64,000 nucleotides of DNA. Origin: Minisyncoccota bacterium (GTDB lineage: Bacteria; Patescibacteriota; Minisyncoccia; UBA6257; JAGOQP01). Shown piece after piece: positions 11,766-33,191 of this stretch; position 1 is the stretch's first letter; every line of letters begins with the position of its first letter. The DNA lies in contig JBAYWE010000002.1 in assembly GCA_041674185.1 (NCBI GenBank), positions 2,233 to 66,232 on the forward strand. The letters run 5' to 3'. The notes beneath the pieces were generated by a model, which had not been told where the DNA came from, made no database searches, and saw nothing but the letters and a program-made list of their open reading frames with translations. A program made the position numbers and the translations under genes.

Positions 11766-11839
11766 TCGGGGATCGTCTAATGGTAGGACAGTGGCCTTTG
11801 AAGCCATTAATTGGGGTTCGAATCCCTGTCCCCGAGCCA
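11766..11839 (+). tRNA. tRNA-Gln (anticodon TTG)
   Basis: Cloverleaf by hand-folding. Acceptor TCGGGGA pairs with TCCCCGA (U1:A72 as in bacterial tRNA-Gln). Anticodon loop is CTTTGAA, T-loop is TTCGAAT, and the 3' CCA is encoded. Confidence 0.85.
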
Positions 11840-13432: not shown

Positions 13433-13472
13433 AATACGTCTGTTTACTTGGGTACAAATAATACCGTTTAAA

Positions 13473-13673
13473 CTATCGAGTGTGCAAGTCCCCACTTTTT
13501 TCTAGGGCATCTTTGAGAGCGCGAATTTTTTCTTTCGTAATCGGCTCATAGACTAACTCTACTAAGCGAATTACTTTAGATGCTTTCTCATACGCTTCGT
13601 TTTTATCTAGCTGTATTCCAAAATGTGTAAAATATAATTCTTGGAATTTTTTTATGTGTTCATCTGATATCAT
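13473..13673 (-). CDS. small hypothetical protein upstream of integrase (possible directionality factor)
   Basis: 66-aa ORF immediately 5' of the integrase on the same strand. No recognisable motif. Confidence 0.3.
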   Translation of the reverse strand: MISDEHIKKFQELYFTHFGIQLDKNEAYEKASKVIRLVELVYEPITKEKIRALKDALEKSGDLHTR

Positions 13674-13847
13674 GCAATCACCCTATATCTTAAGAGAGAA
13701 ATTAGTAGATACGAATATTCCACAATTTTGGGTAAAACACACTCTATAAAGATAATTTGAATGAATTTTACTTGCAGATGTAAATATTCTTACACTATAC
13801 GTAATAGATGAATGAGAATAGATATTTAGTTATTATTTAATAATAGT

Positions 13848-14681
13848 TCACTTAGATAATTGTACTATGGCTGCTTGTAATACTTGCCAACATATTTTTG
13901 CGGTATGTTCATCTGGATCGAAACTCGAGGCTAATTGCTGATATGGGTGTATATAATTTCTAAAGTCTCTGAGAGCATGGCTGAATTTTTTTACATCCTC
14001 ACCCAGAAAATTTAATTCTCTTGCAACATTGATAAAATCGCTCAGCGACCAATCCTGAAATTGCTTTACTTTCCCAGATTTATCTTTCGGGCTTGCAGAA
14101 GCAATGTTAAAATCTTTCGCGTTATTGCTTGCTATTCCAAGTAATATCCCTTCCATAGTACTTCCACAAAGAAAGATTACTGATAAGGATGCATTTATTT
14201 TTAAACACCTTTGGATCTCATCAATTCTCTGTTGAATTACTGTAAGCACCGTTCCATCCAGCTTCAACATGTTAACATCGAGACTCCTAAAATCTTTGCT
14301 TAAAAAATCATCTTCCCTAATTTCATTTGTTTGTGGTTGGGTGCCTTGAAGTTTATTCGATATCTGTTTCCCACGATCCATAATTTTTATAGAGAAGTCG
14401 ATCTCATTTAAATGACCAAGCAATATTTGGTTTTCGATATATTCGATAAGTTTTTGAATCGATTTCCCCACTAAAACATCACTCGCATTTTGCCAAAATC
14501 CTCTCATATAATTCGCCTTTGAACCCGAAGCATATTTATATTGTGGATTATAAATATCAATACCAACATCATCTCTAAAAAATTCTGACATTGTTCTATC
14601 TGAGAAATTTAGAACATATCCACTACCCATATTGAATAATTTTTCGAGCAATTGTTTTTCGTTTGTACTAAGATTTGCCAT
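13848..14681 (-). CDS. hypothetical protein with HEPN-like Rx4-6H motif (Abi-like)
   Basis: C-terminal RDFRNYIHP fits the HEPN R-X(4-6)-H signature. Sits in a defense-gene context. Confidence 0.4.
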   Translation of the reverse strand: MANLSTNEKQLLEKLFNMGSGYVLNFSDRTMSEFFRDDVGIDIYNPQYKYASGSKANYMRGFWQNASDVLVGKSIQKLIEYIENQILLGHLNEIDFSIKIMDRGKQISNKLQGTQPQTNEIREDDFLSKDFRSLDVNMLKLDGTVLTVIQQRIDEIQRCLKINASLSVIFLCGSTMEGILLGIASNNAKDFNIASASPKDKSGKVKQFQDWSLSDFINVARELNFLGEDVKKFSHALRDFRNYIHPYQQLASSFDPDEHTAKICWQVLQAAIVQLSK

Positions 14682-14790
14682 ATTACTTGTCCATAATGGT
14701 TATCAATTTTGAAAATTCTTAAGATTATAAAAACGTCTTATATGATTACATGTCTAAGATAAAATCGTCGTATGATTGACTATCAATTTA

Positions 14791-15627
14791 TTACTCTTCA
14801 TTATCTTCAGTTTCGCTTATTTCTTTCAGATCAGCAATTTTTATATGATGAGAATATACAGCTCCAACTGTAAGAGTATAAGAATGGTGTCGATGTAATT
14901 TTTTTTTACTTTCATGGTCGACGTAGAAATTAATCTTGTTTCCCTTAAAACGATCATCCAATATTTCACCAACAATTTCAATTTGGTCTTGGACATTCTC
15001 CCATGAAAACAATCGGATATTTAATTGATCATTTTCTTTCAGTGATGGATAATGAACATCGTTTCCAACAAACTTGCGTTTTGATACATGCCTGATTTTT
15101 TGATTAAGAATTTTCTTGCTTCTAATTTCTGATTTTCTTCCTACTCTTGAAAGTTTATCCGCAACTTTATTATACTTTTCTTTTTTGTAATGAATCTCAA
15201 CTCGGCCACCAACTTCTTTTGAAAGTTTCATTCTTGCTTTTTGTATACGACTAATCAAATCCTTGTCTTTAATTGGTTTTTCTTCAAAAGTTTTCCATTT
15301 ATTTTTTCGATAATTATCCACCCGATAGGGATTTAATAATCTTTCATCTGTCACACTCATCCTATCAGTATAGATCAGGACTCGTCCTGCTTTTCGTAAT
15401 ACACCTGGATTTTGCTTATTAAATACCAATAACTCATCAATCGCTTCTAGAATACTTATCATCTCAAGTCGTTGGATCCCTTGATGATCATTCCTATAAA
15501 ACTTTTGGATTGGGTCTTGTTGAATTGATTCTGGAAATTCGATAATAAAACCATTTCCACCAGTCTGGGCGGAATCGTAATTCATTGCACCATCACAATG
15601 CACAACAATAGCGCGAGGGTCATCCAT
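14791..15627 (-). CDS. RNase H-like domain protein with Lys-rich C-terminal region
   Basis: VHCDGA, EMISILEAI, IYTDR and NKVADKLS conserve the RNase HI D-E-D-D residue pattern. Confidence 0.55.
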   Translation of the reverse strand: MDDPRAIVVHCDGAMNYDSAQTGGNGFIIEFPESIQQDPIQKFYRNDHQGIQRLEMISILEAIDELLVFNKQNPGVLRKAGRVLIYTDRMSVTDERLLNPYRVDNYRKNKWKTFEEKPIKDKDLISRIQKARMKLSKEVGGRVEIHYKKEKYNKVADKLSRVGRKSEIRSKKILNQKIRHVSKRKFVGNDVHYPSLKENDQLNIRLFSWENVQDQIEIVGEILDDRFKGNKINFYVDHESKKKLHRHHSYTLTVGAVYSHHIKIADLKEISETEDNEE

Positions 15628-15707
15628 TGAATTTCATTTATTTTTATATATCGTTACTCTAAAACATCAAAACAATTGAATGCTCTGCAAAACATTGTAC
15701 CCGAGCT

Positions 15708-16214
15708 TTAAAATCCTGATGGTGGAATCAATGAATCATTATCAATAGCATTCTTTGATGAATTCCATTTCGCAACCTTGATATATCTGTTCTTATTGAA
15801 TTCCAAAATATCCAGTCTATTAAAATGAATGAGTAATTGTTTGAGAGGCTTAGATAATCCTTTGGGAGAGAGTAGAAATGCAAAATCAGGTTTTAATATC
15901 TTACAATACCCTAATAACTGGGATAGATTTATTAAGCTTAATTGTGTGTCCTTCACTTCAATGAATACTAATTTACACATTTCTTTTTCTATCATTACTC
16001 CTAAGAGATCAACTCGAATCTTATAGGTAGCATATTCAGGAAAGAATCTTGCATAATTATTCCGTTGTAAAAAATCGCTCAAATCTACTGAATGGACATC
16101 ATAAGTTTTAATTGAAGCTCGAGGATGTTTTGCTTCTAGATATGTTTGTAACCAAGTAAGCATACTTGGATAAAGTGATATTTCTTTTTTTGATTCGTAG
16201 TTATTCATATGCAC
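15708..16214 (-). CDS. putative restriction endonuclease small subunit (PD-(D/E)xK-like)
   Basis: A D...EVK motif (VDLLGVMIEKEMCKLVFIEVKD). Translationally coupled to the upstream ORF in the R-M operon. Confidence 0.4.
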   Translation of the reverse strand: MHMNNYESKKEISLYPSMLTWLQTYLEAKHPRASIKTYDVHSVDLSDFLQRNNYARFFPEYATYKIRVDLLGVMIEKEMCKLVFIEVKDTQLSLINLSQLLGYCKILKPDFAFLLSPKGLSKPLKQLLIHFNRLDILEFNKNRYIKVAKWNSSKNAIDNDSLIPPSGF

Positions 16215-17121
16215 GGATAGGATCAGTTTCTTCCAACCGATTAAGTAGTTCTGAATAATGATTAAAATGAAGATCTCTCAAAAAACCGGGTAACTTTTCC
16301 GAATGCTCTTCGGGATTTGACATTTTTTCTTTTATTCTAAGTCTTTTACTCTCAGCATTGTCTCCGAGTCCTAGTCTGTTCATAGATGCAAGATCAACTA
16401 GAACATCCTGTTTGTGCCTAAGGTATGACCCTATTGGTAAAAATTGGTTAGCAAACACTTTTACTTGATGTTCTTTTGCCCAGAAACCACTTGATTTTCT
16501 AAAATTCGGATCTCGAAAATTTGGATGACCAAAGTCAATGCTTTCTATTGGAATTTCCACACTTTGAAAAAGCTTGCATAAATCTAACACCAAATACCAA
16601 TTCCGATGATCTACCTCGAGATAGATTCTTTGTTGATCAATCTTACCAAATTGAGCATTTGAGGCACGAACATAACCAGTTACATCAAAGTAACCTCTTA
16701 TAAATTCTTTTTGTTTTTCCTGATCAGATTGAAAAATCACTTTTGGAATCCTAAAGGAATGATAATCACTGAAATCACCATTTAGTAAATAACTCAACAG
16801 TTGCCAAGTTAAATCAGTATTTCTCCAAACAATCACTAAACTAACCCCTCTATTATCCTCATCATTAATTTTATTAACATCAAGTCCAATCCTTTTGAGT
16901 CTTTCAACGATTCTATCCAAGCTATTAGATAGATAAATTTGAGTATTAAATCTTTTTGTAGGATCGATGGGGCTTACAGCTTCAAGATTTTTAAAAGGAA
17001 AGTCAATTACTAATTTTTGTAATTCAATTGACTTGATAATTGTTCCTCTTCCAATAATCAAACCAAGTAGATAAGCAGCATCCTCACTCAAAAAGGAAGA
17101 GAGTCTATTCGTTAGATCCAT
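16201..17121 (-). CDS. putative restriction endonuclease (large subunit)
   Basis: 306-aa ORF between the MTase and the small PD-(D/E)xK ORF, overlapping both. No clear motif; the call rests on position. Confidence 0.35.
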   Translation of the reverse strand: MDLTNRLSSFLSEDAAYLLGLIIGRGTIIKSIELQKLVIDFPFKNLEAVSPIDPTKRFNTQIYLSNSLDRIVERLKRIGLDVNKINDEDNRGVSLVIVWRNTDLTWQLLSYLLNGDFSDYHSFRIPKVIFQSDQEKQKEFIRGYFDVTGYVRASNAQFGKIDQQRIYLEVDHRNWYLVLDLCKLFQSVEIPIESIDFGHPNFRDPNFRKSSGFWAKEHQVKVFANQFLPIGSYLRHKQDVLVDLASMNRLGLGDNAESKRLRIKEKMSNPEEHSEKLPGFLRDLHFNHYSELLNRLEETDPIRAYE

Positions 17122-18958
17122 ATTTTTTAAAGATTAGAATGTATTCATGAACTTTGTTAATAATAAATTTATATGGGTAACCCAAAGGTTTACAATTGTT
17201 ATATTCTTTTTGCCTATCCCAAATAAGCAAATCTTCGAAAGAAAATCCAATTTCTTCCATCACTCTCACCACATCCATATGAAGAGGATATAATTTACTC
17301 CCTTTTCTAATATCCATCACATTGATCACACAATATCCACCAACGCGAATAGTAGTATATACCTCACTTAAAATAATTCTAAGTTCGTTAAGAAAAGCAT
17401 TATACTGTTCAATATTACCTATATCATTAGGGTCAGATGTATAATTTCTTCCGATTTTTAAATCTGCACTTCTTTTAGCATTTAGTATATTCCAGTAGGG
17501 TGGTGATGTGAGACATAAATCGATTGAGTTTGCTTCAATAAATTTTGAAATCTCACGAGAATCTTTTACAAAATATTTAATCTTCCCATTTTGTTTGTAT
17601 GTTGAGTATTCTTTCGAAAGTCGATCAAAGAATAAATTTTTAAATTCATCGCTAATATCTACTCCAAAAACATTCATGTTTTTTTTTAGACCAGCTATAA
17701 GGGTACTACCGCTCCCTGCAAAACAATCAAGAATATTTTTACCTGATCCGTTAGTAAGAATATCTATTATCTTTTCGGCTAATTGTATGGGAAAAATTGC
17801 AGGATGTTTTAATCCAGTTTCCTCTTGATTTTTTGTTACATTTCTCCAAATACTAAACGAATTTTGTAGCCAAGAGTTACCATCAAGTTTATTTGCTCTT
17901 TTCATTGCTGATTGAGTCTCGACGAAATGCAACCTCTCCTCAGTAATATTAGGATCATCTTCATCTTGGTTAATACTTTTATACCTCTTATGTGTCTTCT
18001 TGAATAAACTAACTTTTCCTTTTTTTGATAATATCTGTTCTATTTCGCCAATTGGAATGATTCCTTCATTATTATAACTCAGTAAGATATATTTTGCATT
18101 TACTTGCGTAATTAATTCATCTAATGCCTTGGATGCTCGTCCTTTGTAACAATATTCCGATAATTGATTTTTGTAATCACGAACGCCAGTTTTGCCAGTA
18201 ATAATTGGTTTTTTATCCTCGAACCATCCCTCAGCAATCAGTTCCAATAAAAAATAATTTGAAGCATATTGACGGCTATTATAAGGAGGATCAAGGTACA
18301 GAATATCAATGCTTTTCAATTCTTTGATAAGTTGATTAGCCTCAGACTTAAACGCCTTGTTTTTCCTTGAGCTATGGATTATTTCAGGTGCAGTAATTAT
18401 TAAAGGTTTTGTTGCTCTTTTATCCCAAGTTTTTAGATAGGCTCCATATGTTCCAGCAACATTAGAAACAAGATTAACAGCCTCAAGAAGTGATGTAATC
18501 AAATAGTAATATTCTAGTTCAGAGATCAGCTGATTTTGTTTCCATTCATGTATGATTTCTCTAACAGCATCTATCTTTTGACCATTCTCATTTGAAAAGT
18601 ATTTTCTTTTCCCATTTCCATCAGGACAATAATTATTATAAATAAATCCCTTCTTAATAGGAAGACTATTTAAATAGTTGATGACATAATTATTATCCAA
18701 ATCGGGAACTGCGAGATGTTTCCTTAACTTCAAGAATTTTGGTTCTTCATTTGTCTCTATATATGTTTTTGCGAGAGCAAATGAAAACTCAAGGAAATCA
18801 TTTGCGATGACCGTAAAACCTTGTCTCTTGAAATGTTTGGCAACCGTGGTAGTGCCACTAAATAAGTCAACAAACTTAGCTCCGTGATTCAATTCGGTTT
18901 TTTTTACACCGTTTTCAATTAAATCCAATAATTTTTCTTTACCGCCGTAATAACGCAT
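17105..18958 (-). CDS. fused double DNA methyltransferase (Dam-like D12 domain + gamma-class N6A/N4C domain)
   Basis: N-terminal half has RYYGGK, FVDLFSGTTT and DPPYN. C-terminal half has HPAIFP, FAGSGST and SPPYWN. Confidence 0.8.
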   Translation of the reverse strand: MRYYGGKEKLLDLIENGVKKTELNHGAKFVDLFSGTTTVAKHFKRQGFTVIANDFLEFSFALAKTYIETNEEPKFLKLRKHLAVPDLDNNYVINYLNSLPIKKGFIYNNYCPDGNGKRKYFSNENGQKIDAVREIIHEWKQNQLISELEYYYLITSLLEAVNLVSNVAGTYGAYLKTWDKRATKPLIITAPEIIHSSRKNKAFKSEANQLIKELKSIDILYLDPPYNSRQYASNYFLLELIAEGWFEDKKPIITGKTGVRDYKNQLSEYCYKGRASKALDELITQVNAKYILLSYNNEGIIPIGEIEQILSKKGKVSLFKKTHKRYKSINQDEDDPNITEERLHFVETQSAMKRANKLDGNSWLQNSFSIWRNVTKNQEETGLKHPAIFPIQLAEKIIDILTNGSGKNILDCFAGSGSTLIAGLKKNMNVFGVDISDEFKNLFFDRLSKEYSTYKQNGKIKYFVKDSREISKFIEANSIDLCLTSPPYWNILNAKRSADLKIGRNYTSDPNDIGNIEQYNAFLNELRIILSEVYTTIRVGGYCVINVMDIRKGSKLYPLHMDVVRVMEEIGFSFEDLLIWDRQKEYNNCKPLGYPYKFIINKVHEYILIFKKYGSNE

Positions 18959-18959
18959 A

Positions 18960-19166
18960 TTATGATTTTATCAATTCGTCTATACTTACATTGAGTGCTT
19001 TAGCAATTTTTGAAACTGTTTGAATGGTCGGATTCTGTACACAGCCAGATTCAATTTTTATTATAGTATTATACGCGACATTTGCTATCTTGGAAAGTTT
19101 ATCCTGCGAAAAGCCGCGTTTACTTCTCATTTTTTTTATATTTCGAGAAATGTCATTCATCAACAT
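18960..19166 (-). CDS. R-M controller (C) protein, XRE-family HTH
   Basis: 68-aa HTH (FSQDKLSKIANVAYNTIIKIESG) directly upstream of and co-oriented with the MTase. Confidence 0.75.
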   Translation of the reverse strand: MLMNDISRNIKKMRSKRGFSQDKLSKIANVAYNTIIKIESGCVQNPTIQTVSKIAKALNVSIDELIKS

Positions 19167-19271
19167 ACTTGTAAAAGATTACTATTATAAGTATACATTT
19201 ATTTTCATATAATTTCTATATTTATCATAGATAGATTAACCCTTATGAAAAAATGATAAATCCTTCCTGTA

Positions 19272-20519
19272 TTATTTGATTAGTAAGAATTTTTTTGTTT
19301 TGGTATAGTTATTCATTTGCAAGCTGTAAAAATAAACACCACTCGAAAGATTACTTCCATCAAATCGAACTACATACGTTCCCGGTTGTTTTATTTCATT
19401 CACGAGCACAACAACTTCGTTTCCCAATAAATCATATACACTAAGATGTACTACTTCAGTATGTGTTAGAGCGTAGGTAATATTCGTTACCGGATTAAAA
19501 GGATTAGGATAATTCTGAAACAGGTGAAACTCTGTCGGCTGAGAATATGAATCTTTGGCAACATCTGTAACGGTTTGATTTATTTTAAATACTGATCCGT
19601 TATCAACATAAAATATATCTCCGAAAGAATTCATTTGTATTTGCTTTACATACGCATGAGTGTTTACACCACTCAGTTCTCCAAGCAGATTCCATGTGGT
19701 TGTGCCATTAGTATTTTTATAAAGATAGCTTGAAGTATAATCACTTGTTTCTGCAAACAAATTTTCCTGCTGATCTTTAAAAATTTTTGTGGTAACAAAT
19801 GGAGTTTGAGTTATTGGGACAATACCTAAAGTAGTTCCATTATCCATAGTCGTTCTGATTTCGTTTGAAGTCGTAAAATAGATCAGTCCATTAGATCGTA
19901 TTGCGGTTGCATATACAGTCCCTGGTTCGCAATAACTCCATGATTCTCCGTCAGTAGATTTGTATAATCCTTGATACGTTCCAATGTAGATAGTTTTATT
20001 CGGATGGATAGCAATACCCAAACCAAGACTTTTACTAAACGAATTTTGTGAGGGAAGAGACTTCCATGTACTGCCATTATCTTTAGAAAGATAGAAGGTA
20101 TAGACACTGGAATATACCGCGTTATTATATGCAGAAATATGAAAGAGCAAATTCCCATTTGCATGTTCAAACATGCGATCAATCTCTACATCTTGAAATC
20201 CGACTAACTCCCAATTTCCTGTTTCGTTTTTACTTCGGTATAATCCATTATAAGATGCATCGACATATAGATCACCAGAATTCGTTTTATAGACCATTCC
20301 CGTTTGTTTATACGGGAAGCTCAGAGAAACCCAGGTTACGCCATTGTCAGGCGAATAATATAATCCATCACTTTCTGTCCCGACAAAAATTCTATTATCA
20401 GAAAGAATAGAAATAGTGCGGGCAGTACTAAACGGTGTCGTGATTTTTGTGCCGATTTTTTGAGACCACACAAAACTTGCAATCAATAAAAGAAAAATAA
20501 TAGTTACTGATTTTTTCAT
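19272..20519 (-). CDS. secreted BNR-repeat protein with T9SS (Por) C-terminal sorting domain
   Basis: Signal peptide; SxDxGxTW BNR repeats (SPDNGVTW, SKDNGSTW). C-terminal ~80 aa match the Por_Secre_tail consensus (YPNPFNP...VYDLLG...SGVYFY). Confidence 0.8.
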   Translation of the reverse strand: MKKSVTIIFLLLIASFVWSQKIGTKITTPFSTARTISILSDNRIFVGTESDGLYYSPDNGVTWVSLSFPYKQTGMVYKTNSGDLYVDASYNGLYRSKNETGNWELVGFQDVEIDRMFEHANGNLLFHISAYNNAVYSSVYTFYLSKDNGSTWKSLPSQNSFSKSLGLGIAIHPNKTIYIGTYQGLYKSTDGESWSYCEPGTVYATAIRSNGLIYFTTSNEIRTTMDNGTTLGIVPITQTPFVTTKIFKDQQENLFAETSDYTSSYLYKNTNGTTTWNLLGELSGVNTHAYVKQIQMNSFGDIFYVDNGSVFKINQTVTDVAKDSYSQPTEFHLFQNYPNPFNPVTNITYALTHTEVVHLSVYDLLGNEVVVLVNEIKQPGTYVVRFDGSNLSSGVYFYSLQMNNYTKTKKFLLIK

Positions 20520-20603
20520 AATTACCTCTTCATAATTTTATTCACCACTAGGTGAAAACCATGTAGGTGTGTTAGCCACACCCACACGCAGTTACGTTTA
20601 TTA

Positions 20604-21056
20604 CTATTTATGATTCTCAATTTTTTCATAGAGATAGTTTTCTAGATTCTGAACCTTCTCACTATTATCTTTCGATATATCGTGCCACTCGATTGACTTG
20701 GATGATGATTCAAGTGTTGCAAGTATGGTTATTGAGGTAGTGTTTTTGTTGGATGCATCAAATATGATGTTGTATTTGTATCGAGTTGTGAGTGCACCAC
20801 CAACCAAACCAACCTGTGTAGATCCCTGAATATAATCTGTTTGGATTTTTTTATTCGCTTTATCCTGAGTGGCTATGGTTATACGTTCAGCAAGCAACAC
20901 ATCCTGAACTGATTTCCATACCTCATCAAATGATTTCTCATATGTTTTTTTCGGTGTATATCCCTCAGTTGCGGAAGGGAGCGTTGCCGAACCAACAGTA
21001 AAACAAGAACACAACAAGACGCTCATGAGAGCGGAAGCTAACACTAATCGTTTCAT
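20604..21056 (-). CDS. lipoprotein, hypothetical
   Basis: Signal peptide with an LLCSC lipobox. Confidence 0.55.
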   Translation of the reverse strand: MKRLVLASALMSVLLCSCFTVGSATLPSATEGYTPKKTYEKSFDEVWKSVQDVLLAERITIATQDKANKKIQTDYIQGSTQVGLVGGALTTRYKYNIIFDASNKNTTSITILATLESSSKSIEWHDISKDNSEKVQNLENYLYEKIENHK

Positions 21057-21514
21057 AAAGACTCCTTTGTATTGAGCAATGCATAATCAAAGATGGGCCA
21101 CACATCTGGCATCGCTATTTGCAGACGTATAGCGTTCGTTATTTTCTTTCACACATAATTTTTAAAACAAAAAAAGGACGCAACTTTCATTACATCCTTC
21201 TTCGAGGCACTGGCATGCCTGTGCACAAAGACGTAAGAAAGCGCGTCCATCTCGGACGCACCTTACTTGCTTGTTCTTGTGCACGTTTAACTTGCCAGTT
21301 TTCGAAGAAGAACAACGCAGTAAATGCGTTAAAATATTATGTTAAAAAACTCTCTGAATTTCCTTGGATTAATTTTCGATTCACATTAAAAGTAACAAAT
21401 ATTTGAATAAGATATTAACAAAAATGTATCGCAATTGATTTTCACCACATGAGTTGCTCTTTCAAGCAAATTCTCATTCCTTTTTTTGCGATACAGGCAC
21501 TATAAAATTACATT

Positions 21515-21808
21515 ATGGAATATGACATATGTAAAAAAATTCCCAACCTCTTACGCAAATACCGTAAAGCTAACGGATATAAACAAAAAGATGTTGCGCG
21601 GATTTTAGGAATAAAAAGTTCGAGCAAAATTTCACGATGGGAGAAAGGAGAGTGCATTCCCAATCTGGTGAATGTTTTTAAAATATCCATTCTCTACCGT
21701 GTTATGGTCGATTCATTATTCATCGATCTGCTTCGTCAATTAAGAATTGATGTGAATAAGCAAGAACAAGAATATTCACACAAAAAGCAATTGACGATTC
21801 GGCGTTAA
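21515..21808 (+). CDS. XRE-family HTH transcriptional regulator
   Basis: KQKDVARILGIKSSSKISRWEKG helix-turn-helix. Confidence 0.7.
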   Translation: MEYDICKKIPNLLRKYRKANGYKQKDVARILGIKSSSKISRWEKGECIPNLVNVFKISILYRVMVDSLFIDLLRQLRIDVNKQEQEYSHKKQLTIRR

Positions 21809-21824
21809 TCGAAACAACTCCTCA

Positions 21825-22439
21825 ATGCACGATCTACGATCAATAAAATCAGGAGAGTGGTTTTGGATTGATAAATCTATTATTTGGAAACATGCCTCTA
21901 CAATTGGATTTTCTGCATTTGTAATCTATGCCTTTCTTGCAAGTATGGCAGATGAAAACCAAAGCTGTTATCCATCACAAAAATATATTGCTGATCATTT
22001 AGGGTGTTCACGAGCAACAGTCAATCGAGGAATACAAAAACTTGCTGATCATAAACTCATAACTATCGAAAAGAAAAATAAAATTCATCATCGTTATTAT
22101 CTTTTGCTCACTGAGCGTTTCACTGGTGATACACAGGTGTTGCATGGGTGCAACCAACCAGTATCAAAAGTTGACACTAACAAGACTAACAAACAAGAAA
22201 TAAATAACAACATAGTTGTTAGTGTGACAAAAGAGAACACCCTAGCAAACGAAATAGCAAATACGCTCAATAGTCATGAACACATAAAAATATATCAACA
22301 GTTGGTACATACCTATCCTGAAGCATTTTTAAGAAAGATACTAGCAGAAGTAAAACTAACCCCGCTCCATAAAATTAAGAAAAGTCGGCACGCATTATTT
22401 ATATATCTCATTCGTTATTATGCTCAATCACACACATAA
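21825..22439 (+). CDS. winged-helix DNA-binding protein (replication-initiator/regulator-like)
   Basis: LGCSRATVNRGIQKLADHKLI HTH with a hydrophobic N-terminus, as in phage/plasmid helix-turn-helix proteins. Confidence 0.45.
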   Translation: MHDLRSIKSGEWFWIDKSIIWKHASTIGFSAFVIYAFLASMADENQSCYPSQKYIADHLGCSRATVNRGIQKLADHKLITIEKKNKIHHRYYLLLTERFTGDTQVLHGCNQPVSKVDTNKTNKQEINNNIVVSVTKENTLANEIANTLNSHEHIKIYQQLVHTYPEAFLRKILAEVKLTPLHKIKKSRHALFIYLIRYYAQSHT

Positions 22440-22449
22440 TATTTTCTCG

Positions 22450-22935
22450 ATGGTATTAGGGACGCGATATATCGGAGTCGCAATCATGAAAGGATCAGAC
22501 CTACAAGATTGGTTTGTAAAATCCTTAAGTGGAAAATCAGTAAAAGAAAAAATCACATATCTCATAGATATTACAACAGATTATTTACAACGATTCAACA
22601 TTGACGCGTTCGCAATCAAAAAATTACATCCATCACGAAGTTCTCCAACGCTTAATAAACTCAGTGAATCGATAAAGTCAGTTGCCCGAAATGAACATCT
22701 TTCTATCATAGAATATCCGATCTCGACCATAGAACGATCACTCCTTATTGGTAAAACAAATAAAAAATTATTAATCGATGAAGTGCTGAGAATCTATCCA
22801 GTCATCTATCACGATTATGAACGAGAACAGAAAAATAAAAACAGATATCTCACGAGAATGTTTGAAGCAATTGCATTAGGAATCGTATGCAATCAAGCAC
22901 TTGATTCGAATAAAAGAGTCATCACCAATTCTTAA
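22450..22935 (+). CDS. RuvC-like Holliday-junction resolvase paralog (catalytically degenerate?)
   Basis: LGTRYIGVAIM and C-terminal FEAIALGI parallel the downstream RuvC. The first catalytic Asp is absent and a late Asp is replaced by Glu. Confidence 0.5.
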   Translation: MVLGTRYIGVAIMKGSDLQDWFVKSLSGKSVKEKITYLIDITTDYLQRFNIDAFAIKKLHPSRSSPTLNKLSESIKSVARNEHLSIIEYPISTIERSLLIGKTNKKLLIDEVLRIYPVIYHDYEREQKNKNRYLTRMFEAIALGIVCNQALDSNKRVITNS

Positions 22936-22947
22936 AAAATAATTACT

Positions 22948-23451
22948 ATGAAAAAGCAATCATTACAAAAAGTTCTCTCAATTGATCCGGGGACAAAACA
23001 TTTAGGGGTTGCGTTTTTTGAAGGGAAAAATCTTATCTATCATGGAGTAAAAATTATCAAGCATCTCAAATCTCCAGAAGAAACATTACAAGAAGGGAAG
23101 AAGCTTATTCTTCGATTAATTACTGATTATAAACCTGATGTGTTGGTTGTCGAAAAAACATTTTTCTCAAATAACAGAAACTCTGCTCTGCTCAATGTAT
23201 TCGCCGATGAAATACAATCCGTCGGAAAAAGAAAAGGATTGATCGTAAAATCTTTTGCCGCAAATACAGTTCGAAAACAAATTTGTGGAAATGGTTCTGC
23301 AAGTAAAGACGAAGTTGCAAAAGTAGTCGTCTCACTCTATCCCGAACTCAAACCCTATTTAACCTCTGATAGAAAATGGAAGGAAACATTCCATCGAAAT
23401 ATGTTTGATGCAGTCGCTTTAGGATTATTGATTGTAAATCAATCAGCATAA
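22948..23451 (+). CDS. RuvC-family crossover junction endodeoxyribonuclease
   Basis: SIDPGTKHLGVAF, VVEKTFF and DAVALGL match RuvC catalytic motifs. Confidence 0.7.
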   Translation: MKKQSLQKVLSIDPGTKHLGVAFFEGKNLIYHGVKIIKHLKSPEETLQEGKKLILRLITDYKPDVLVVEKTFFSNNRNSALLNVFADEIQSVGKRKGLIVKSFAANTVRKQICGNGSASKDEVAKVVVSLYPELKPYLTSDRKWKETFHRNMFDAVALGLLIVNQSA

Positions 23452-23453
23452 CT

Positions 23454-24248
23454 ATGATCCCCTACTTTGGTGGTAAATCATATTTGGCGGATTGGGTGAT
23501 TTCTCATTTCCCAGAGAACTATAAAAACTTATCCTATTGTGAAGTATTTGGAGGAGGAGGGTGGGTGCTCTATAAAAAAGAACCTAGTCGCATTGAAACA
23601 TATAATGATCTCAATAAAAATATTGTTAATCTGTTTCGAGTCATTCGAGATCGTTTTCCTGAATTTAATCATCGAGCGAATTGGTCGTTACACAGCAGAG
23701 AGTTATTTCAAGAAGCGAAAGCAAAATTACAAGATGATAAAACACTAAGTGATATTGAACGAGCAATTCATTACTCAATTCTACAAACACAATCATTCTC
23801 CGGAGATGGTCATTCATGGACATATCGTGTATCTCCCAGTCATGTGTTTTCTGGAAAATGGTTGCCTCTGTTGAAACGACTTGAGTTAATCAATATTCGA
23901 TTGAAGCGTGTGCAAATCGAATGTCTTGATTTTGAAAAAGTAATTCAAAAATATGATTCCAAAGACACACTCTTTTATCTTGATCCTCCATACTTCGGGA
24001 AAGAAAAATATTATCAGAAAGAAGAGGTCTATTTCGGAAATGAAGATCATATACGATTAGCAACTACGCTCCACAATATCAAAGGAAAATTTCTTCTCAG
24101 TTATTATGATCATCCCAAAATCAAAAAGCTATATCGTGGAAATCGTATTGTGCAAAAATGCATTCCTAAGTATGGATCTAAAAGTAAATTGGTAGAAGCG
24201 ATTGCTACAAAACCACGAGCGAAAGAAATACTTATTATGAATTACTAA
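23454..24248 (+). CDS. DNA adenine methyltransferase (Dam/D12 class, orphan)
   Basis: PYFGGKSYL, EVFGGGGWV and DPPY motifs. Confidence 0.8.
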   Translation: MIPYFGGKSYLADWVISHFPENYKNLSYCEVFGGGGWVLYKKEPSRIETYNDLNKNIVNLFRVIRDRFPEFNHRANWSLHSRELFQEAKAKLQDDKTLSDIERAIHYSILQTQSFSGDGHSWTYRVSPSHVFSGKWLPLLKRLELINIRLKRVQIECLDFEKVIQKYDSKDTLFYLDPPYFGKEKYYQKEEVYFGNEDHIRLATTLHNIKGKFLLSYYDHPKIKKLYRGNRIVQKCIPKYGSKSKLVEAIATKPRAKEILIMNY

Positions 24249-24392
24249 AACATATTCTGAATTGTATTTCGTGCAATGACGCTTTGGATAATTTATTGGT
24301 AAATACATATATTTAAGATATGCATGTATTGTTCTGGTTTTTGTTAGAATCTATTGGCTCTAGTAAGAAAAGAAGAAACTTAACGGGGGCGT

Positions 24393-25163
24393 ATGCGAAT
24401 TAAAATTTATGCCTGGTCTTGTGTAACATTCCTTTTGGTGATGACACCACTGCAATACATTGCACAACAGCATACGCTCGACACACTTCACTATGAACTT
24501 CCCGAAATATACAGTCATGATCAGATTGTAAAACATTTTGCATTCACGTTACGGTATAACGAAGCGCATGAACAATCTGATTGGGTTGCGTATCGATATA
24601 CTAAATCAATGACTAATAAGAAATATCCGCGCACGAATAAATTCCGCATCGACCCAATAGTAAAGACTGGATCAGCCACTCCGTCAGATTATAAAAATAC
24701 TAAGTATGATAAAGGGCATCTAGCACCATGCGATGATATGCGCTGGTCAAAGCAAGCGGAATTAGAATCGTTTCTCATGAGTAATATGAGTCCCCAATCA
24801 CATGCGTTTAATGCGGGTATTTGGAAACGACTCGAAGGAATGATACGGAAATATGCAATCGCATTAGATACCATTTATGTTGCAACGGGTCCCATACTTG
24901 AAAAAGGACTGCCATCAATTGGCAGTAATAAGGTTTCTGTTCCAAAATATTTTTATAAAGTAATACTTGTGTATCGTGAACATAGTAAAGGTGCAATTGG
25001 ATTTATTCTCCCTCATGCACAATCAAAGAAAGATCTATTATCATTTGCTGTCCCGGTTGATTCTGTTGAGAAACGAACGGGAATTAATTTTTTTGCTTCG
25101 TTGCCTGATAGTATTCAAAATAAATTGGAATCAACTTTTCAAAAAGATTTTTGGAGAAATTAA
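24393..25163 (+). CDS. secreted DNA/RNA non-specific endonuclease (Serratia nuclease/EndoG family)
   Basis: Signal peptide; DKGHLAP (the DRGH beta-beta-alpha-Me motif) and SNMSPQ. Confidence 0.8.
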   Translation: MRIKIYAWSCVTFLLVMTPLQYIAQQHTLDTLHYELPEIYSHDQIVKHFAFTLRYNEAHEQSDWVAYRYTKSMTNKKYPRTNKFRIDPIVKTGSATPSDYKNTKYDKGHLAPCDDMRWSKQAELESFLMSNMSPQSHAFNAGIWKRLEGMIRKYAIALDTIYVATGPILEKGLPSIGSNKVSVPKYFYKVILVYREHSKGAIGFILPHAQSKKDLLSFAVPVDSVEKRTGINFFASLPDSIQNKLESTFQKDFWRN

Positions 25164-25205
25164 TATCAGGTTAGGTATATATCATTAACAAATAATGAGG
25201 AAAGC

Positions 25206-25709
25206 ATGGCAGCAAAAGATAGTATTCCGTTTGCTCACTGGTCACATCTCAGTGAGGGCTTACAAGAATCTTCCATGAAGTTTTACCAAGCAACTGAAGA
25301 AGCAATTAAAAAGCGTCAGATACCAGATATCAAACTCTCACGCATTGATTATAGAGAAGGAGGATTATTCTCAGCGAAAAGAGAATATCTCCGAGTAAAA
25401 TGGAAATCATATATCTTTGATATTTGTGCCGCACCATTTGGAACTGGATTTTTTATATCATGGTGGCTAGGACAAAAACCATCCGCACTAATGGCGCTCG
25501 TCTATATGATTCCGTTCATTGGACCTTTAATGGTGCGTTCATTCAAACCGGAAACATATTATCAACTCGATACGACGCAGATGTTTCAAGAATCAATTCA
25601 TCTTGCCGTCTTAGAAGTATTAGATCAAACAACACAAGCAAGCGGACTTCGTTCTCTCTCCGAGATGGAACGAAAACCAATCATGCAAGATGTGTTAAAG
25701 AAATCGTGA
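25206..25709 (+). CDS. hypothetical protein
   Basis: 167-aa ORF with an internal hydrophobic segment. Confidence 0.4.
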   Translation: MAAKDSIPFAHWSHLSEGLQESSMKFYQATEEAIKKRQIPDIKLSRIDYREGGLFSAKREYLRVKWKSYIFDICAAPFGTGFFISWWLGQKPSALMALVYMIPFIGPLMVRSFKPETYYQLDTTQMFQESIHLAVLEVLDQTTQASGLRSLSEMERKPIMQDVLKKS

Positions 25710-25719
25710 GAGTTTCTGA

Positions 25720-28700
25720 ATGCAGTATGAATTGATTGAAGAATTAACAAAGCAATTTTACGAATGGGAACAACGGGGAAGAGGTTGGGATTTATGGAGC
25801 TTTCCCGTTGATCCTGAACCACCGTTTATTCCGTTCTATTATCACAGCGCAGAGAAAGTCGTGCAGATTGATGATGGACGAAAACCAACACTTCTCAGTT
25901 CATTTGCCGATACATTAAAACGTGTATTACTTCCAAGTGAATCTCAAGATGCTCATAAGAATCAAACAATTGAATATCGAAAAGAAATTTTACCACAACC
26001 ATTCACCCGCAGTGATGATATTCAGGAAATAAAAATTGTATTACCGCACGACTATAAGATGGATGCAGAATATCTTGAGCAGTGTATTCTTGGCATTACT
26101 CTTCATACATCTTTGATCAGTTTCGAAATAGTAGGATCGTATGAATCCATAACCATCCAGTTTGCTTGTTGTGCACATGACACAATACATCTTTCTCAAC
26201 AACTCAAAGCATACTTTCCTGAATACACACTCTCAGTATCTGAGAATTCATTTTATGATACATTTTTCCCAGATGAAAATGATGATGTTGCGGTAATCGA
26301 TTATGGATTGTCTGAAGAATTTATGAGACCAATTCGTGTGTATGATTCTTTTGACCCCGATCCTCTCACCGGAATAATTGGAGTATTAGATAATCTACAA
26401 GAAGGAGAAACTGCGCTCTTACAAATACTTTTTACTCCAGTAGAAGCTCCATGGTCTTCAAGTATCATGCGATCAGTTATGACCAGTTCAGGAGATTCTT
26501 TTTTTGCCGATGCCCCGGAAATGGTAAAACTTGCTCATGAAAAATGTAAGTCCCCTCTCTTTGCAGTTAACATGAGAGTATTAGGAAAAGGAATAAATCA
26601 ACATCGTTCATGGGAAATTGTTAAAGCTGTATCAAGTTGTTTGAGTTCATATACACTGCCGCAAAGCAATGAGTTAATTCCTCTCACAAATCAGGATTAT
26701 AATCCTATTGCGCACTATGAAGATGTTATCTTACGGCGAACGAGACGAAGTGGGATGATTCTCAATAGTGAAGAGTTGATATCACTCGCTCATTTTCCAT
26801 CTGCATCTATAGTTTCTAAAAAACTTCGAGGGCAAAATCAAAAAAGTATTCTCGCACCTAATACCTTAGCTGGACATGACTATATACTTGGTGAAAATAT
26901 TCATAGTGGAACGTCACATGAAGTATCACTGAGTCATGAGCAACGATTGCGACACATCCATATTATTGGAGCTACCGGCACCGGAAAATCGACTCTGTTA
27001 CGATCACTCATCACACAAGATATAGAACGTGGACTTGGCATAACGGTATTAGATCCTCATGGAGATTTAATAGAATCGATTCTTGAGCAGATACCAGAAG
27101 AGCGTTTTGAAGATGTGATTGTATTTGATCCTAGTGACGAAATGCATCCGATTGGATTTAACATTCTCGAAGCAAAAACTGAAGTTGAAAAAAATGTATT
27201 ATCATCTGATCTGGTTGAGATATTCAAAAGATTTTCTACCAGTTGGGGTGATCAAATGAGTGTGGTTTTAGGGAATGCTATTTCAGCATTTCTGGAAAAC
27301 TCACGTATTGGTTCATTGATGGATTTACGAAGATTCCTAATCGAGAAAGATTTTCGTGAGGAATTTTTGCGTGATGTTTCGGATGATCATGTCATCTACT
27401 TTTGGGAAAAAGAATATCCCCTCTTACGCGGATCGGCATTAAGCTCAATCCTCACACGACTTGATTTTTTCTTGCGCCCTAAGCTGATAAGAAATATTGT
27501 CTCTCAAACGAAAGGAATTGATCTTAAAGAAATTGTTGATCATAAAAAAATACTTTTAGTAAAACTTGCTCAAGGAATTATTGGTGATGAGAACGCCTAT
27601 CTGTTAGGATCATTGCTCGTATCAAAACTACACCAAGTCGTTATGCAACGGCAATTACAAAATAGCCATGAACGCACACCCTTTTATTTATACATAGATG
27701 AGTTTCAAAACTTTATTACGCCATCCATGAAAGCGATGTTATCCGGTGCAAGAAAATATCATATGGGACTAATCCTTGCGCATCAAGATTTACATCAGTT
27801 ATCGGAAACGGATACCGGGCTTGCTAATTCCATTATATCAAACGCAGGAACGCGCATTTGTTTTCGTGTCGGTGATTTTGATGCGCAGAAATTAGAAAGT
27901 GGATTTGCACATTTTGATTCAAACGATTTACAAAATCTGAGCATTGGTGAGGCAATCGTTCGTGTTGAGCGATCTGATTATGATTTTAATCTAAAAACAT
28001 TTTTACCAAGCTTGAAAAATACCGAAGAAGCGCACAGAACTAAGCAAGCAATCATCGATCTTTCCAGAAAAAAATATGGTGGAGTTCCTGCTGTAATTGA
28101 ACGAACAAAACAGGAACCACAAATATATTCCATACCGCAGACATCGATAAAGAAAGATGTCCCTAAAAAAGAACCTATTGAAATCCCGAAACGGAGTAAT
28201 GATACAATTCGAACTCAGAGCGAAGATCAAAAGAGCATCACCTATCATAGATATTTACAAACATTAATAAAACGATTAGCGGAACAGAGAGGATATAAAG
28301 CTGTTGTTGAAGAACAGACAATTGACAAACTTGGACGTGTTGATGTTGGACTTGAGCGAGATGATGAAAAAATCGCATGTGAAATTTCTGTAACCACAAA
28401 TGATGATCACGAGATAAAAAATATTGAAAAGTGTTTTCAATCAGGGTACCAGAAAGTATTATTCTGCTCACCAGAAAAGAAGCGTCTTGATTCAATAAGG
28501 AAATTGATAGTTGAAAAGTTAGAATCAGTATTATGTGAAAAGGTATTTTTCTTTTTGCCTGATGAATTGGTTTTGTTCTTTGAGAATGAAACTATAGGTA
28601 AGGTCAAACAGCAAAGTGAAAATATCGTGAAAGGATACAGAGTAAAGGTGGAATACAAAACTATTTCCGAAGCTCAAAAAAAAGAGAAACAGGAAGTAGT

Positions 28701-28749: not shown

Positions 28750-28834
28750 AATATATTATTGTGTGGCTTTGCATCAGTAATTATGTATTTATTATAGACT
28801 AAACAATACAAAGTAATCAGGATTAATATGGTGA

Positions 28835-30330: not shown

Positions 30331-30371
30331 ACTTGACAATCATTTCTAGAATACCTACCTTTAAGTAGAAG

Positions 30372-33120: not shown

Positions 33121-33191
33121 AACAAACGTTCTTCACAATTAATTTAATTCATTTTACTAATCGGTTATACCATGATGAACAGTATAACCGA

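Follow-up and report, generated by a model that had tools for sequence, protein, structure and literature searches.

The nearest described relatives in kind of the protein analyzed here are the type A cargo proteins of type IX secretion systems (T9SS) in Bacteroidota and Ignavibacteriota, which end in a C-terminal sorting domain (CTD; TIGR04183 or PF18962), and especially the propellers annotated as "photosystem II stability/assembly factor-like" (Ycf48/BNR/sortilin-Vps10) that are abundant in Ignavibacteria. Asp-box (SxDxGxTW) repeats on a beta-propeller are also a feature of sialidases (GH33 BNR enzymes). With respect to possible vehicles, integrative or mobilizable elements with large serine recombinases bear at one edge a recombinase that combines Resolvase, Recombinase, and Zn-ribbon domains, insert next to tRNA genes, encode a regulator and a replication-like module, and carry variable cargo, for example, restriction-modification and defense genes. 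The AICEs of actinomycetes move DNA with a single FtsK-like ATPase. Plasmids and phages also encode lipoproteins for surface or entry exclusion or for receptor masking, such as TraT of F, Llp of T5, and Cor of phi80. To our knowledge, most lineages of CPR bacteria (Patescibacteria) have no known host, and little is known about the mobile elements that reach CPR bacteria or about the origin of those elements.

In this report, we describe a gene whose protein is ordinary in kind but whose host context is unusual: unlike FCB cargo genes, it resides in the chromosome of an ultra-small CPR bacterium, which is expected to have neither a T9SS nor an outer membrane. The target gene (19272..20519, minus strand) lies in a 64-kb stretch of DNA (hereafter, the window), starts with ATG, has exactly the boundaries given by an earlier sequence-only reading, and encodes 415 amino acids. 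The NCBI record of the identical protein is MFA7201465.1, [quoted passage not shown]. As in FCB type A cargo, a Sec signal peptide followed by Gln precedes an Asp-box propeller and a CTD of about 80 aa. The putative signal peptide (aa 1-19, nt 20463-20519, minus strand) is predicted from the sequence, the AlphaFold2 (AF2) model, and the alignment of homologues; the N-terminus, MKKSVTIIFLLLIASFVWS followed by QK, is basic and hydrophobic, with a helix at aa 2-15 in the model. Gln20, directly after this peptide, is invariant in 18 homologues, which is consistent with the "Q-rule" of Bacteroidetes (PMC5837995).

The CTD (aa 337-412, nt 19284-19511, minus strand), which follows a linker, scores 45.1 bits (E 1.3e-11) with the Pfam profile PF18962 (Por_Secre_tail) and 43.3 bits with the NCBIfam profile TIGR04183 ("T9SS type A sorting domain"), above the curated cut-offs of 27 and 23 bits, in agreement with the earlier assignment of the last ~80 residues as a T9SS sorting signal. 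The domain is intact, retains all family-invariant residues, and has the motifs of FCB type A cargo (NYPNPFNP...SGVYFY). In the AF2 model (mean pLDDT 81.4), an all-beta propeller is joined to a C-terminal beta-sandwich of Ig-like form, whose seven strands span residues 332-413 with a block pLDDT of ~78-92. No other protein in the 64-kb window matches the CTD profile.

The single Asp-box (BNR) propeller (aa ~20-322, nt 19554-20462, minus strand) is supported by motifs, the AF2 model, and fold matches. Its Asp-boxes comprise two canonical copies found by motif scan (SPDNGVTW at 56 and SKDNGSTW at 145) and about four degenerate copies, two from the same scan (STDGESW at 188 and TMDNGTTL at 224) and two identified by eye (SKNETGNW at 96 and NTNGTTTW at 270). 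The sequence-only reading had called this region sialidase-type BNR. The Asp-boxes and the propeller uphold the BNR part of that description, but a sialidase identity is ruled out by motif, family, and fold evidence. Neither FRIP nor [FY]R[IV]P was found in the motif scan, no sialidase, GH33, or BNR_2 family in Pfam or NCBIfam matches at E <= 0.01, and no sialidase occurs among the top 50 structural matches. The top PDB match is instead the T9SS surface protein PorZ (5m11), which has propellers and a CTD, a fold likeness shared with FCB type A cargo; other best matches are propellers of Bacteroides hybrid two-component sensors and GH74. The propeller is of the Ycf48/sortilin-like type, not a sialidase. 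Most relatives have two propellers (~700 aa), in contrast to the one propeller of the target.

Among about 6,500 homologues of the target protein, nearly all that have names are from FCB bacteria; with the query excluded, 12 of 13 named homologues belong to Ignavibacteria, Bacteroidota, or Kryptonia. The closest named homologue is 66% identical at the amino acid level and is encoded on a 2.55-Mb Ignavibacteriales contig. The two closest copies, on contigs without a host label, are 85% (L002) and 72% (L003) identical. No close match of the glycerate kinase encoded in the L003 flank carries an organism name, its cluster records add none, and the gene contexts of its relatives are not diagnostic; none of the 120 best DnaX matches is on the 770-kb JGI contig from which L002 comes. 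All 10 close homologues with readable context reside in the same mobile-element family. Unlike CTD cargo in general, this 10-member subfamily is found only on one family of elements.

The target gene is the last component of a conserved cassette that consists, in order, of a putative structured leader RNA, the gene for a small BamC-like lipoprotein, and the gene for the propeller-CTD protein. Directly upstream of the target, the gene at 20604..21056 (minus strand) encodes a putative lipoprotein of 150 aa with the N-terminus MKRLVLASALMSVLLCSC. Its lipobox-like LLCSC is atypical in a motif scan, and its BamC-like domain is weak: PF06804 scores 25.9 bits against a cut-off of 25 over a stretch of only 73 residues, and the NCBIfam BamC model scores 21 bits, far below its cut-off of 371. 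The lipoprotein is co-conserved with the target gene (97% identity in L002, 88% in L003, and 78% in L004), and a Bacteroidetes locus (L010) has an analogous lipoprotein gene ahead of its CTD gene.

A conserved structured noncoding block (21158..21352, minus strand) lies upstream of, and in the same orientation as, the lipoprotein gene. It is made up of a short hairpin, a long hairpin of ~110 nt in which G.U pairs are abundant, and a hairpin that resembles a terminator and has a U-run. Matches to this block were found in nine loci by using nhmmer. The predicted fold has a minimum free energy of -76 kcal/mol (z = -9.3), and compensatory changes occur at seven of 52 pairs among nine sequences. 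The block has no match to an Rfam family, whether the gathering threshold or E <= 5 is applied. We regard it as a candidate RNA of the cassette, either a leader or a small RNA. The cassette occupies a cargo slot between the integrase end of the element and its HTH_3 regulator. No decay was seen in any part of it, including the leader RNA, which fits a recent arrival and also continued use.

The identity of the host can be established from other parts of the same contig. A 5' fragment of a 16S gene is present at the start of the window, and contains the string ACACCTACGGGTGGCAGCAG that had been reported there. An RNase P gene is also on this contig. All named homologues of DnaX are from CPR bacteria (Pacebacteria, Parcubacteria, Wolfebacteria, Harrisonbacteria, or Patescibacteria), and the gene order dnaX, tRNA-Gln, MFS is retained in CPR relatives. 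Given the 16S fragment, the DnaX homologues, and flanks that are syntenic with CPR contigs, the host is, on sequence grounds, a CPR bacterium (Candidatus Paceibacterota), and the Paceibacterota label of the NCBI protein record agrees. The earlier view that the core genes around the island are not those of Bacteroidota is thus borne out, and the host lies outside the FCB group.

Three CPR contigs (L005, L006, and L008) align to positions 369-11709, and their alignment resumes at 48164; in these contigs, the two points are only ~2.5 kb apart. Comparison with this empty site shows that the island is a true insertion, as judged from the alignments. The inserted DNA, absent from related CPR contigs, is ~36 kb long (11840..48163, right boundary approximate). 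At its left edge is the gene for a large serine recombinase (11807..13495, minus strand) with matches to PF00239 (Resolvase), PF07508 (Recombinase), and PF13408 (Zn_ribbon_recom). These observations substantiate the proposal that the target gene is in a mobile region. The 3' end of the recombinase gene abuts tRNA-Gln(UUG) (11766..11839, plus strand), which, at the left junction, lies on the side of the chromosome. The possibility that this tRNA is borne by the element is ruled out because homology with the L003 element ends at the tRNA 3' end (11837). The sequence of the tRNA is oddly divergent from the tRNA-Gln of close relatives. No direct repeats of at least 10-11 nt were found between the junction regions; such att repeats are not expected, because the crossover core of serine recombinases is very short.

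The source contig is a MEGAHIT (k141) metagenome assembly, and an assembly or binning artefact could in principle have joined the cassette or island of an Ignavibacteria or Bacteroidota genome to CPR DNA via a shared repeat. Such inter-element repeats are conceivable, given that the RuvC-like protein of the window is 92% identical to that of L002. Moreover, related elements and further variants of the cassette are found in assemblies whose ENA accession numbers are nearby (ERZ27236928 and ERZ27237183), a hint, though not proof, of a common study. However, CPR flanks are present on both sides and are collinear with three independent CPR contigs, so that an artefact involving the whole island would need two chimeric joins, and the 16S fragment and RNase P gene are on the same contig. 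In addition, the exact protein occurs on contigs that fall in three size blocks and come from several sources (ENA, NCBI, JGI, and Logan), mostly with the same neighbors, and the left junction is precisely where the serine recombinase gene meets the tRNA gene, as a real integration would predict. We therefore regard an artefact as very unlikely.

The insertion probably consists of two tandem elements, as judged from gene content. Element A (~11.84-33.1 kb) includes the target gene. Element B (~33.2-47.5 kb) has its own serine recombinase (33192-35147) and also contains a DGR, a second VirD4-like ATPase, DUF932, and nucleases of the PD-(D/E)XK and OLD types. The element A recombinase is 67% identical to its counterpart beside this cassette in L003. 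A conserved backbone block (21515..23451, plus strand) points away from the cassette in divergent orientation. It encodes an HTH_3 regulator (21515-21808), a DnaD-like HTH_36 protein (21825-22439), a divergent paralogue of RuvC (22420-22935), and a resolvase that is RuvC-like (22948-23451), with 72-82% nucleotide identity to L002 and L004. Also conserved in the element family is a pair of genes (25206..28749, plus strand) for a 167-aa protein and a 1009-aa ATPase of the TrwB/VirD4/FtsK-HerA type, a candidate DNA-transfer motor.

In its edge recombinase, tRNA-adjacent insertion, regulator with replication-like module, and variable cargo, the element resembles the large-serine-recombinase elements noted earlier, and its single TrwB/FtsK-HerA-type ATPase recalls the AICEs, with no VirB4-type mating-pore genes detected. 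Coupling-protein or FtsK-HerA-like ATPases are encoded in the island at 25720-28749 and 38893-40227. Among the island open reading frames scanned, a set that leaves aside several small ones, no VirB4 or relaxase family was found; the complete mating-pair-formation T4SS with relaxase that defines an ICE is thus missing from those scanned. A prophage reading was dropped, given that PHROGs gave no capsid or tail matches and that the RuvC-like backbone gene has no relatives in 50,697 phage records. In plasmid records, the matches of this gene are only to cellular ruvC (29% identity), and IMG/VR contains one match. The backbone differs from known elements in having no close match in the phage or plasmid collections and only one in IMG/VR. 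Mobility is predicted from gene content. A term search found no paper that joins Patescibacteria, integrative elements, and serine recombinases.

Relatives of the backbone (21515..23451) were found at 16 loci among GTDB species genomes. They span at least seven phylum-level lineages, CPR included (at least six others), a range that also sets this element apart from those known. The CTD profile matches the cargo region in all four copies with an FCB label (one Ignavibacteriales and three Bacteroidota), and in none of the 12 copies from genomes without one. Nine of these 12 are from Nitrospira, Scalindua, Anammoxibacter, Thermodesulfobacteriota, Syntrophobacteraceae, or Desulfarculales, and three are from genomes labeled only "bacterium". 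Five loci from related CPR genomes also gave no match. Thus, CTD cargo is shown to be restricted to FCB copies, apart from the CPR copy described here, and the content of the cargo slot changes with the host envelope.

Similarity to FCB copies extends beyond the target gene. A module of ~4 kb (lipoprotein, leader RNA, HTH_3, HTH_36, and two RuvC-like genes) is common to the window and the Ignavibacteriales contig, and therefore the element itself was the vehicle, transferred as a whole. Nucleotide identity over cassette and backbone is 72-76% on that contig and 82-91% on the JGI contig J055_10000001. The RuvC-like protein of the window is 80% identical to its Ignavibacteriales counterpart, 76% to that of Bacteroidetes, and 51-68% to other copies. 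Together, the CPR backbone of the contig, the FCB homologues, the shared module, and the Gln after the signal peptide support the earlier suggestion of horizontal acquisition from an FCB-lineage donor. The contrast in GC content and codon usage with the core genes that might have accompanied it was not found: GC and GC3 are alike in cassette, island, and core (GC3 0.27-0.30 everywhere), so composition gives no independent support for a foreign origin.

Given these results, the target is quite probably T9SS-CTD cargo that an element carried from an Ignavibacteria- or Bacteroidota-like donor into a CPR chromosome, where its CTD is vestigial; we infer that transfer ran from FCB to CPR. The cassette would have evolved in T9SS-bearing FCB bacteria (Ignavibacteriales or Bacteroidota). 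In such hosts, Sec would take the propeller-CTD protein through the inner membrane, after which SprA/PorV would move it over the outer membrane by means of its CTD; the protein would end up exposed on the cell surface, where the lipoprotein would be its outer-membrane partner. In the window, a copy of the element has integrated beside tRNA-Gln in the Candidatus Paceibacterota chromosome. In the CPR host, the protein would still be exported by Sec and then released or held on the wall with its CTD uncleaved, the CTD being inherited baggage rather than a working sorting signal. With low confidence, we propose by analogy that the native role of the cassette is surface exclusion, receptor masking, or adhesion for the element: as with TraT, Llp, and Cor, accessory genes beside the regulator of a mobile element encode a small lipoprotein and a surface protein, although the cassette proteins have no sequence similarity to those proteins and the likeness is one of analogy only.

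The CTD would instead be a working signal if the CPR host had a T9SS or functional analogue and an outer-membrane-like layer, with the target as a genuine substrate. The only features of the window that point this way are the intact CTD and the adjoining BamC-like lipoprotein. Both genes are inside the island and are common to the Ignavibacteriales element, and no further CTD protein is present in the window or in the five related CPR loci. Moreover, neither T9SS machinery (SprA/Sov, PorK/L/M/N, PorU/V) nor outer-membrane genes were found in the 64-kb window, and a full-text literature search found no report of a T9SS in Patescibacteria. A T9SS in the host is unlikely, because it has been proposed that Patescibacteria have no outer membrane, and the T4SS native to them is monoderm in type (PMC12102498); with 64 kb of the genome covered, the absence of T9SS and outer-membrane genes from the whole genome is assumed. 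The reading of the target as a genuine substrate in such a host is extremely improbable.

The target might also function in the CPR cell independently of a T9SS, as a Sec-secreted adhesin or as a glycan-binding or glycan-hydrolyzing propeller with the CTD as an Ig-like stalk; alternatively, the CTD might dock on the T9SS attachment machinery (PorV/PorU) or the surface of an Ignavibacteria or Bacteroidota cell that serves the CPR bacterium as its host. The intact reading frame, lipoprotein, and leader RNA accord with such a function, as do dN/dS values for the propeller of 0.08-0.11 against three orthologues (~0.1 against L002, at a dS of 0.37), which indicate purifying selection. As L002 comes from a host without a label, this selection is not assignable to the branch of CPR bacteria, and a recent transfer equally predicts an intact cassette. 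The FCB hosts of the closest element relatives, the cassette variants in the two ENA assemblies, and the reported co-abundance of CPR bacteria with Ignavibacteria (PMC7906910) also favor a function of this kind. However, the island is missing from closely related CPR contigs, so it is not a lineage-wide trait. Overall, a T9SS-independent function is unlikely, and cargo with a vestigial CTD remains the reading we prefer. If the hosts of L002 and L003 are CPR bacteria, the cassette has long been kept in CPR and may have a function there.

More speculatively, the island could record a physical partnership in which a Paceibacterota episymbiont lives on an Ignavibacteriales or Bacteroidota host and exchanges a promiscuous element with it, the propeller-CTD protein and lipoprotein being used for envelope mimicry that engages the type IX attachment machinery or surface of the host. 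In a broader version of this idea, the element would be an undescribed cross-phylum vehicle reaching CPR, with a cargo slot of envelope-matched surface proteins under a conserved leader RNA. We consider this proposal distinctly unlikely.

The element family that spans many phyla is apparently uncharacterized and may be new, as may the conserved structured RNA upstream of T9SS-cargo genes. For annotation, the locus is a caution that a sorting domain alone does not imply a secretion system. For CPR biology, it offers a testable lead on the pairing of hosts and symbionts. An element anchored on both sides in a CPR chromosome, on a contig with a 16S fragment, is evidence of gene flow that we infer to have run from FCB to CPR, because Ignavibacteriales and Bacteroidota hold the closest labeled relatives of the element, whose cargo would be sensible only in a T9SS-bearing diderm.

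The open reading frame at 19272..20519 (minus strand), which was confirmed in the sequence, encodes a protein of 415 amino acids, the last ~80 of which had been read as a type IX secretion system (T9SS) sorting domain. Profile searches bear out this assignment: the last 76 residues score 45.1 bits with Pfam PF18962 and 43.3 bits with NCBIfam TIGR04183, above the curated cut-offs of 27 and 23, respectively. The protein retains every residue that never varies when 18 homologues are aligned; in this C-terminal domain (CTD), these residues include NYPNPFNP, the Gly and Glu of VYDLLGNEV, and the Ser and Tyr of SGVYFY. A typical Sec signal peptide forms its N terminus, and the Gln that comes next is invariant in the 18 homologues and matches the "Q-rule" of Bacteroidetes signal-peptidase-I substrates (PMC5837995).

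The segments are separated by a single beta-propeller, in which two Asp-boxes are canonical and about four more are degenerate. An AlphaFold2 model built on the 18-sequence alignment (mean pLDDT 81.4) shows a propeller that is all beta, and a C-terminal sandwich of seven strands. The closest structure in the PDB is PorZ, a T9SS surface component that also consists of propellers and a CTD; propellers of Bacteroides hybrid two-component sensors and GH74 enzymes follow. The sequence-only reading had described sialidase-type BNR repeats. The Asp-box propeller stands, but the sialidase identity was overstated, because the FRIP motif is absent and no sialidase family in Pfam or NCBIfam matches the protein. 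The propeller is instead of the Ycf48/sortilin/F510_1955-like type; its score with NF045728 is 57.7 bits, under the cut-off of that profile, and homologues carry precomputed PF02012, PF15902 and PF14870 annotations. The protein is ordinary for its family, which is very common.

An identical protein in NCBI (MFA7201465.1) is assigned to a "Candidatus Paceibacterota bacterium" metagenome-assembled genome (MAG). NCBI taxonomy now places Candidatus Paceibacterota in the phylum Minisyncoccota, kingdom Bacillati, and Ignavibacteriales in the FCB group, Pseudomonadati. As an independent test of the host, we searched for homologues of DnaX (10603..11721), the product of the gene that abuts the island carrying the CTD gene. 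Among the best 120 matches, every named match with a lineage label was to Pacebacteria, Paceibacterota, Parcubacteria, Wolfebacteria, Harrisonbacteria or Patescibacteria (CPR); two further matches were labelled just "bacterium". Other core genes in the window encode MurG, FtsW, MraY, a penicillin-binding protein, ScpA/B, a release factor, PGK, DHODH, SpoU, sigma-70 and ABC-F proteins, and no outer-membrane- or T9SS-related gene was found among the remaining core genes of the window. The window also encodes RNase P RNA and three tRNAs, and a bacterial 16S rRNA fragment (5' 369 positions) stands at its start. At the site of the common 341F primer, this fragment (window 1-40, minus strand) reads ACACCTACGGGTGGCAGCAG, where the normal sequence is ACTCCTACGGGAGGCAGCAG; with this mismatch, standard amplicon surveys would amplify the lineage poorly.

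The position of the gene in a mobile region was established by an empty-site comparison with three contigs of related CPR bacteria, L005, L006 (GCA_027422955.1) and L008, whose DnaX proteins are 79-91% identical to that of the window. These contigs are collinear with the window over 369-11709 and again from 48164 (MFS transporter, ABC-F), and this collinearity, together with the DnaX labels, agrees with the earlier view that the core genes around the island are unlike those of Bacteroidota. Between the points equivalent to 11709 and 48164, the relatives have just ~2.5 kb, in which a tRNA-Gln is encoded. The CPR backbone of the window has thus received an insertion of ~36 kb (~11.84-48.16 kb). 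That the whole island is an assembly artefact is unlikely, because a chimeric join would have been required twice. Two large serine recombinases, at 11807..13495 and 33192..35147, are present, and the island looks like two related elements in tandem, A (~11.84-33.1 kb) and B.

At the insertion site, the tRNA-Gln(UUG) (11766-11839) is ~67% identical (50/75 positions) to its counterparts in the relatives (L005 6633-6704, L006 11858-11929 and L008 7682-7753). The relatives with this ~67% identical tRNA have a 91% identical DnaX, and the tRNA differences fall in all stems. In the window, the tRNA is separated from dnaX by 45 nt, versus ~750 nt in the relatives with 91% identical DnaX.

Close relatives of the protein number just ten among 5.8 billion proteins (38-100% identity); the remaining homologues are at most 34% identical over comparable length, and most are double-propeller proteins of ~700 amino acids. 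With the query excluded, 12 of the 13 named matches are from Ignavibacteria, Bacteroidota or Kryptonia. The genes for close relatives share a recurring context. Immediately upstream of the propeller-CTD gene is a gene for a small lipoprotein, whose BamC-like domain is weak. A conserved intergenic stretch separates this gene from a divergent operon that comprises HTH_3, HTH_36, a RuvC paralogue and a RuvC-like gene. Identity to the window at the nucleotide level is 91% (cassette) and 82% (backbone) in the 770-kb JGI contig J055_10000001 (L002), 77-82% in a Logan contig (L003), whose serine recombinase is 67% identical to that of the window, and 72-76% in a 2.55-Mb contig of the Ignavibacteriales MAG GCA_026390795.1 (L004). 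Since identity extends over both cassette and backbone, the gene was not acquired by itself: cassette and element core move as a unit, and both are present in a genome that is unambiguously FCB (L004).

More divergent cassette variants (39-55% amino acid identity) occur in the ENA assemblies ERZ27236928 (L031 and L033) and ERZ27237183 (L032). Accession numbers of these assemblies, of that of L005, which lacks the island (ERZ27237554), and of that of L036, a relative of the L003 flank (ERZ27227667), are near ERZ27247358 of the window, and all may derive from one study or ecosystem. If they derive from one ecosystem, donor and recipient could be sought together there.

A scan with the RuvC-like protein (22948-23451; RuvC fold) of one genome per GTDB species yielded 16 loci, among which this protein is 51-76% identical. 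Their labels are Bacteroidota (3 loci), Nitrospira, Scalinduaceae/Scalindua/Anammoxibacter (4), Thermodesulfobacteriota (2), Syntrophobacteraceae, Desulfarculales and three "bacterium"-only genomes; one locus is a 3-kb contig binned as Saccharibacteria. The order HTH_3, HTH_36, RuvC paralogue, RuvC is kept in most loci, and many also have a 167-aa protein, a big (~1000-aa) ATPase and a serine recombinase. The adjoining paralogue (22420-22935; 171 aa, no Pfam match) is 25-31% identical to the RuvC-like protein, and the pair is kept throughout the family. The backbone was not found in phage and plasmid collections. The family appears to be uncharacterised and to have a very broad host range that includes anammox Planctomycetota.

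The segment upstream of HTH_3 varies between copies. In the Ignavibacteriales copy and in all three Bacteroidota-labelled copies, the proteins encoded in this slot have a T9SS CTD, and in one of these copies (L010) a lipoprotein gene again precedes the CTD gene. One Scalinduaceae copy has genes for a lipoprotein and for a secreted protein that lacks a CTD, and other copies have unrelated genes. When the CTD profile was run over six-frame translations of all comparison loci, it matched neither the copies from genomes labelled outside the FCB group nor the five CPR-relative loci; in the window, the propeller protein is the sole match. Cargo thus matches the host envelope everywhere but in the CPR copy of the window. 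The RuvC-like protein of the window shares 80% identity with the Ignavibacteriales copy, 76% with the Bacteroidetes copy and 51-68% with the rest, and this closeness to FCB copies suggests that the element as a whole came from an FCB donor. The proposal of horizontal acquisition from such a donor is accordingly strengthened by the RuvC-like protein and by the cassette and backbone shared with an Ignavibacteriales genome, and the vehicle is supported to be an integrative element of the serine-recombinase type, relatives of which occur in FCB genomes.

Element A also encodes DNA methyltransferases, an RNase H-like protein, a non-specific endonuclease, a ThiF/DUF6791 protein and a 1009-aa TrwB/FtsK-HerA-type ATPase. 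The island genes searched yielded no match to a capsid, tail, VirB4 or relaxase family, and for this reason we rejected a prophage or a full ICE and regard element A as an integrative, possibly mobilisable, element. Defence or restriction cargo of the island includes a 617-aa D12 + N6_N4 methyltransferase fusion beside a 306-aa protein (16201-18958), a Dam-like methylase (23454-24248), the DUF6791-ThiF protein (31602-32777) and an OLD-family ATPase/TOPRIM nuclease (45279-47003). Qat, Bil, TIR and SIR2 genes replace this cargo in related copies (L002, L004 and L031).

Element B (~33192-47500) encodes a serine recombinase, a 444-aa VirD4-like ATPase, PD-(D/E)XK nucleases, DUF932 and the OLD-family nuclease. 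It holds a textbook diversity-generating retroelement (DGR; 35553-38804, minus strand), with a reverse transcriptase (35553..36605), a template repeat (36776-36900) and a variable repeat (37381-37505). The repeats mismatch at template adenines only, and the variable repeat lies at the 3' end of the gene encoding a 471-aa pilin-like protein, which has an N-methylation motif of pilin type and an FGE-sulfatase/C-type-lectin-fold domain. Genes of element B are 72-87% identical to those of a 272-kb Trout Bog hypolimnion contig (L028, 1-8000), where a conserved RNA and other small genes fill the slot of the DGR and a T9SS-CTD gene lies nearby.

This RNA corresponds to a ~190-nt non-coding block at 21158..21352 (minus strand, as the cassette), upstream of the lipoprotein (20604..21056) and T9SS-CTD genes, that is more conserved than the flanking protein genes. 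It is predicted to fold (-76 kcal/mol, z = -9.3) into a short hairpin, a G.U-rich long hairpin and a hairpin that resembles a terminator and has a U-run. Nine loci contain the block (the window, L002 9169-9365, L003 2187-2386, L004 9107-9304, L010 7302-7472 and L026-L029), with compensatory changes at seven pairs, and in L029 it is directly upstream of a gene for a 1263-aa T9SS-CTD protein. It has no Rfam match. It is a candidate for a new leader or small RNA tied to T9SS cargo genes.

The propeller has dN/dS of 0.08-0.11 against three sequenced orthologues, which indicates purifying selection in the past, and no decay is seen in the window copy. The CTD-coding end (19272-19473) is mosaic relative to L002: dS is 2.4 (saturated) versus 0.37 for the propeller, and amino acid identity is 57% versus 93%. 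An orphan CTD remnant in L003 (8325-8514), downstream of a helicase gene, has 75% nucleotide identity to the window CTD and is nearer to it than is the CTD of the L003 cassette. These alignments suggest segment exchange among T9SS-CTD genes, which would be expected in T9SS-bearing hosts. Composition, proposed earlier as a check, did not distinguish a foreign origin: GC and GC3 are alike in island and core, with local GC up to 0.43-0.46 at the DGR region.

In an FCB host, the protein would be exported by Sec, its CTD would be recognised by the T9SS translocon for subsequent surface display, and its partner in the outer membrane would be the lipoprotein. This export route follows established knowledge of type-A CTD proteins. 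The cassette adjoins the element regulator and its content matches the envelope, so its native role might, by analogy and with low confidence, be surface exclusion, receptor masking or adhesion. Patescibacteria have been proposed to lack an outer membrane and to have a type IV secretion system of monoderm type (PMC12102498); the CPR host should therefore have no outer membrane, and no description of a Patescibacteria T9SS turned up in a full-text literature search. For these reasons, the protein in the CPR host is most likely exported by Sec while its CTD goes unused, as a passenger of an element that arrived recently. Continued function there is the less likely reading.

Co-abundance of CPR bacteria with Ignavibacteria has been noted before (PMC7906910), which makes host-symbiont exchange between them a reasonable, if unproven, hypothesis. 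The interest of the protein lies in its host context, as evidence for gene flow from FCB to CPR bacteria, and further in the element family and the RNA that accompany it.
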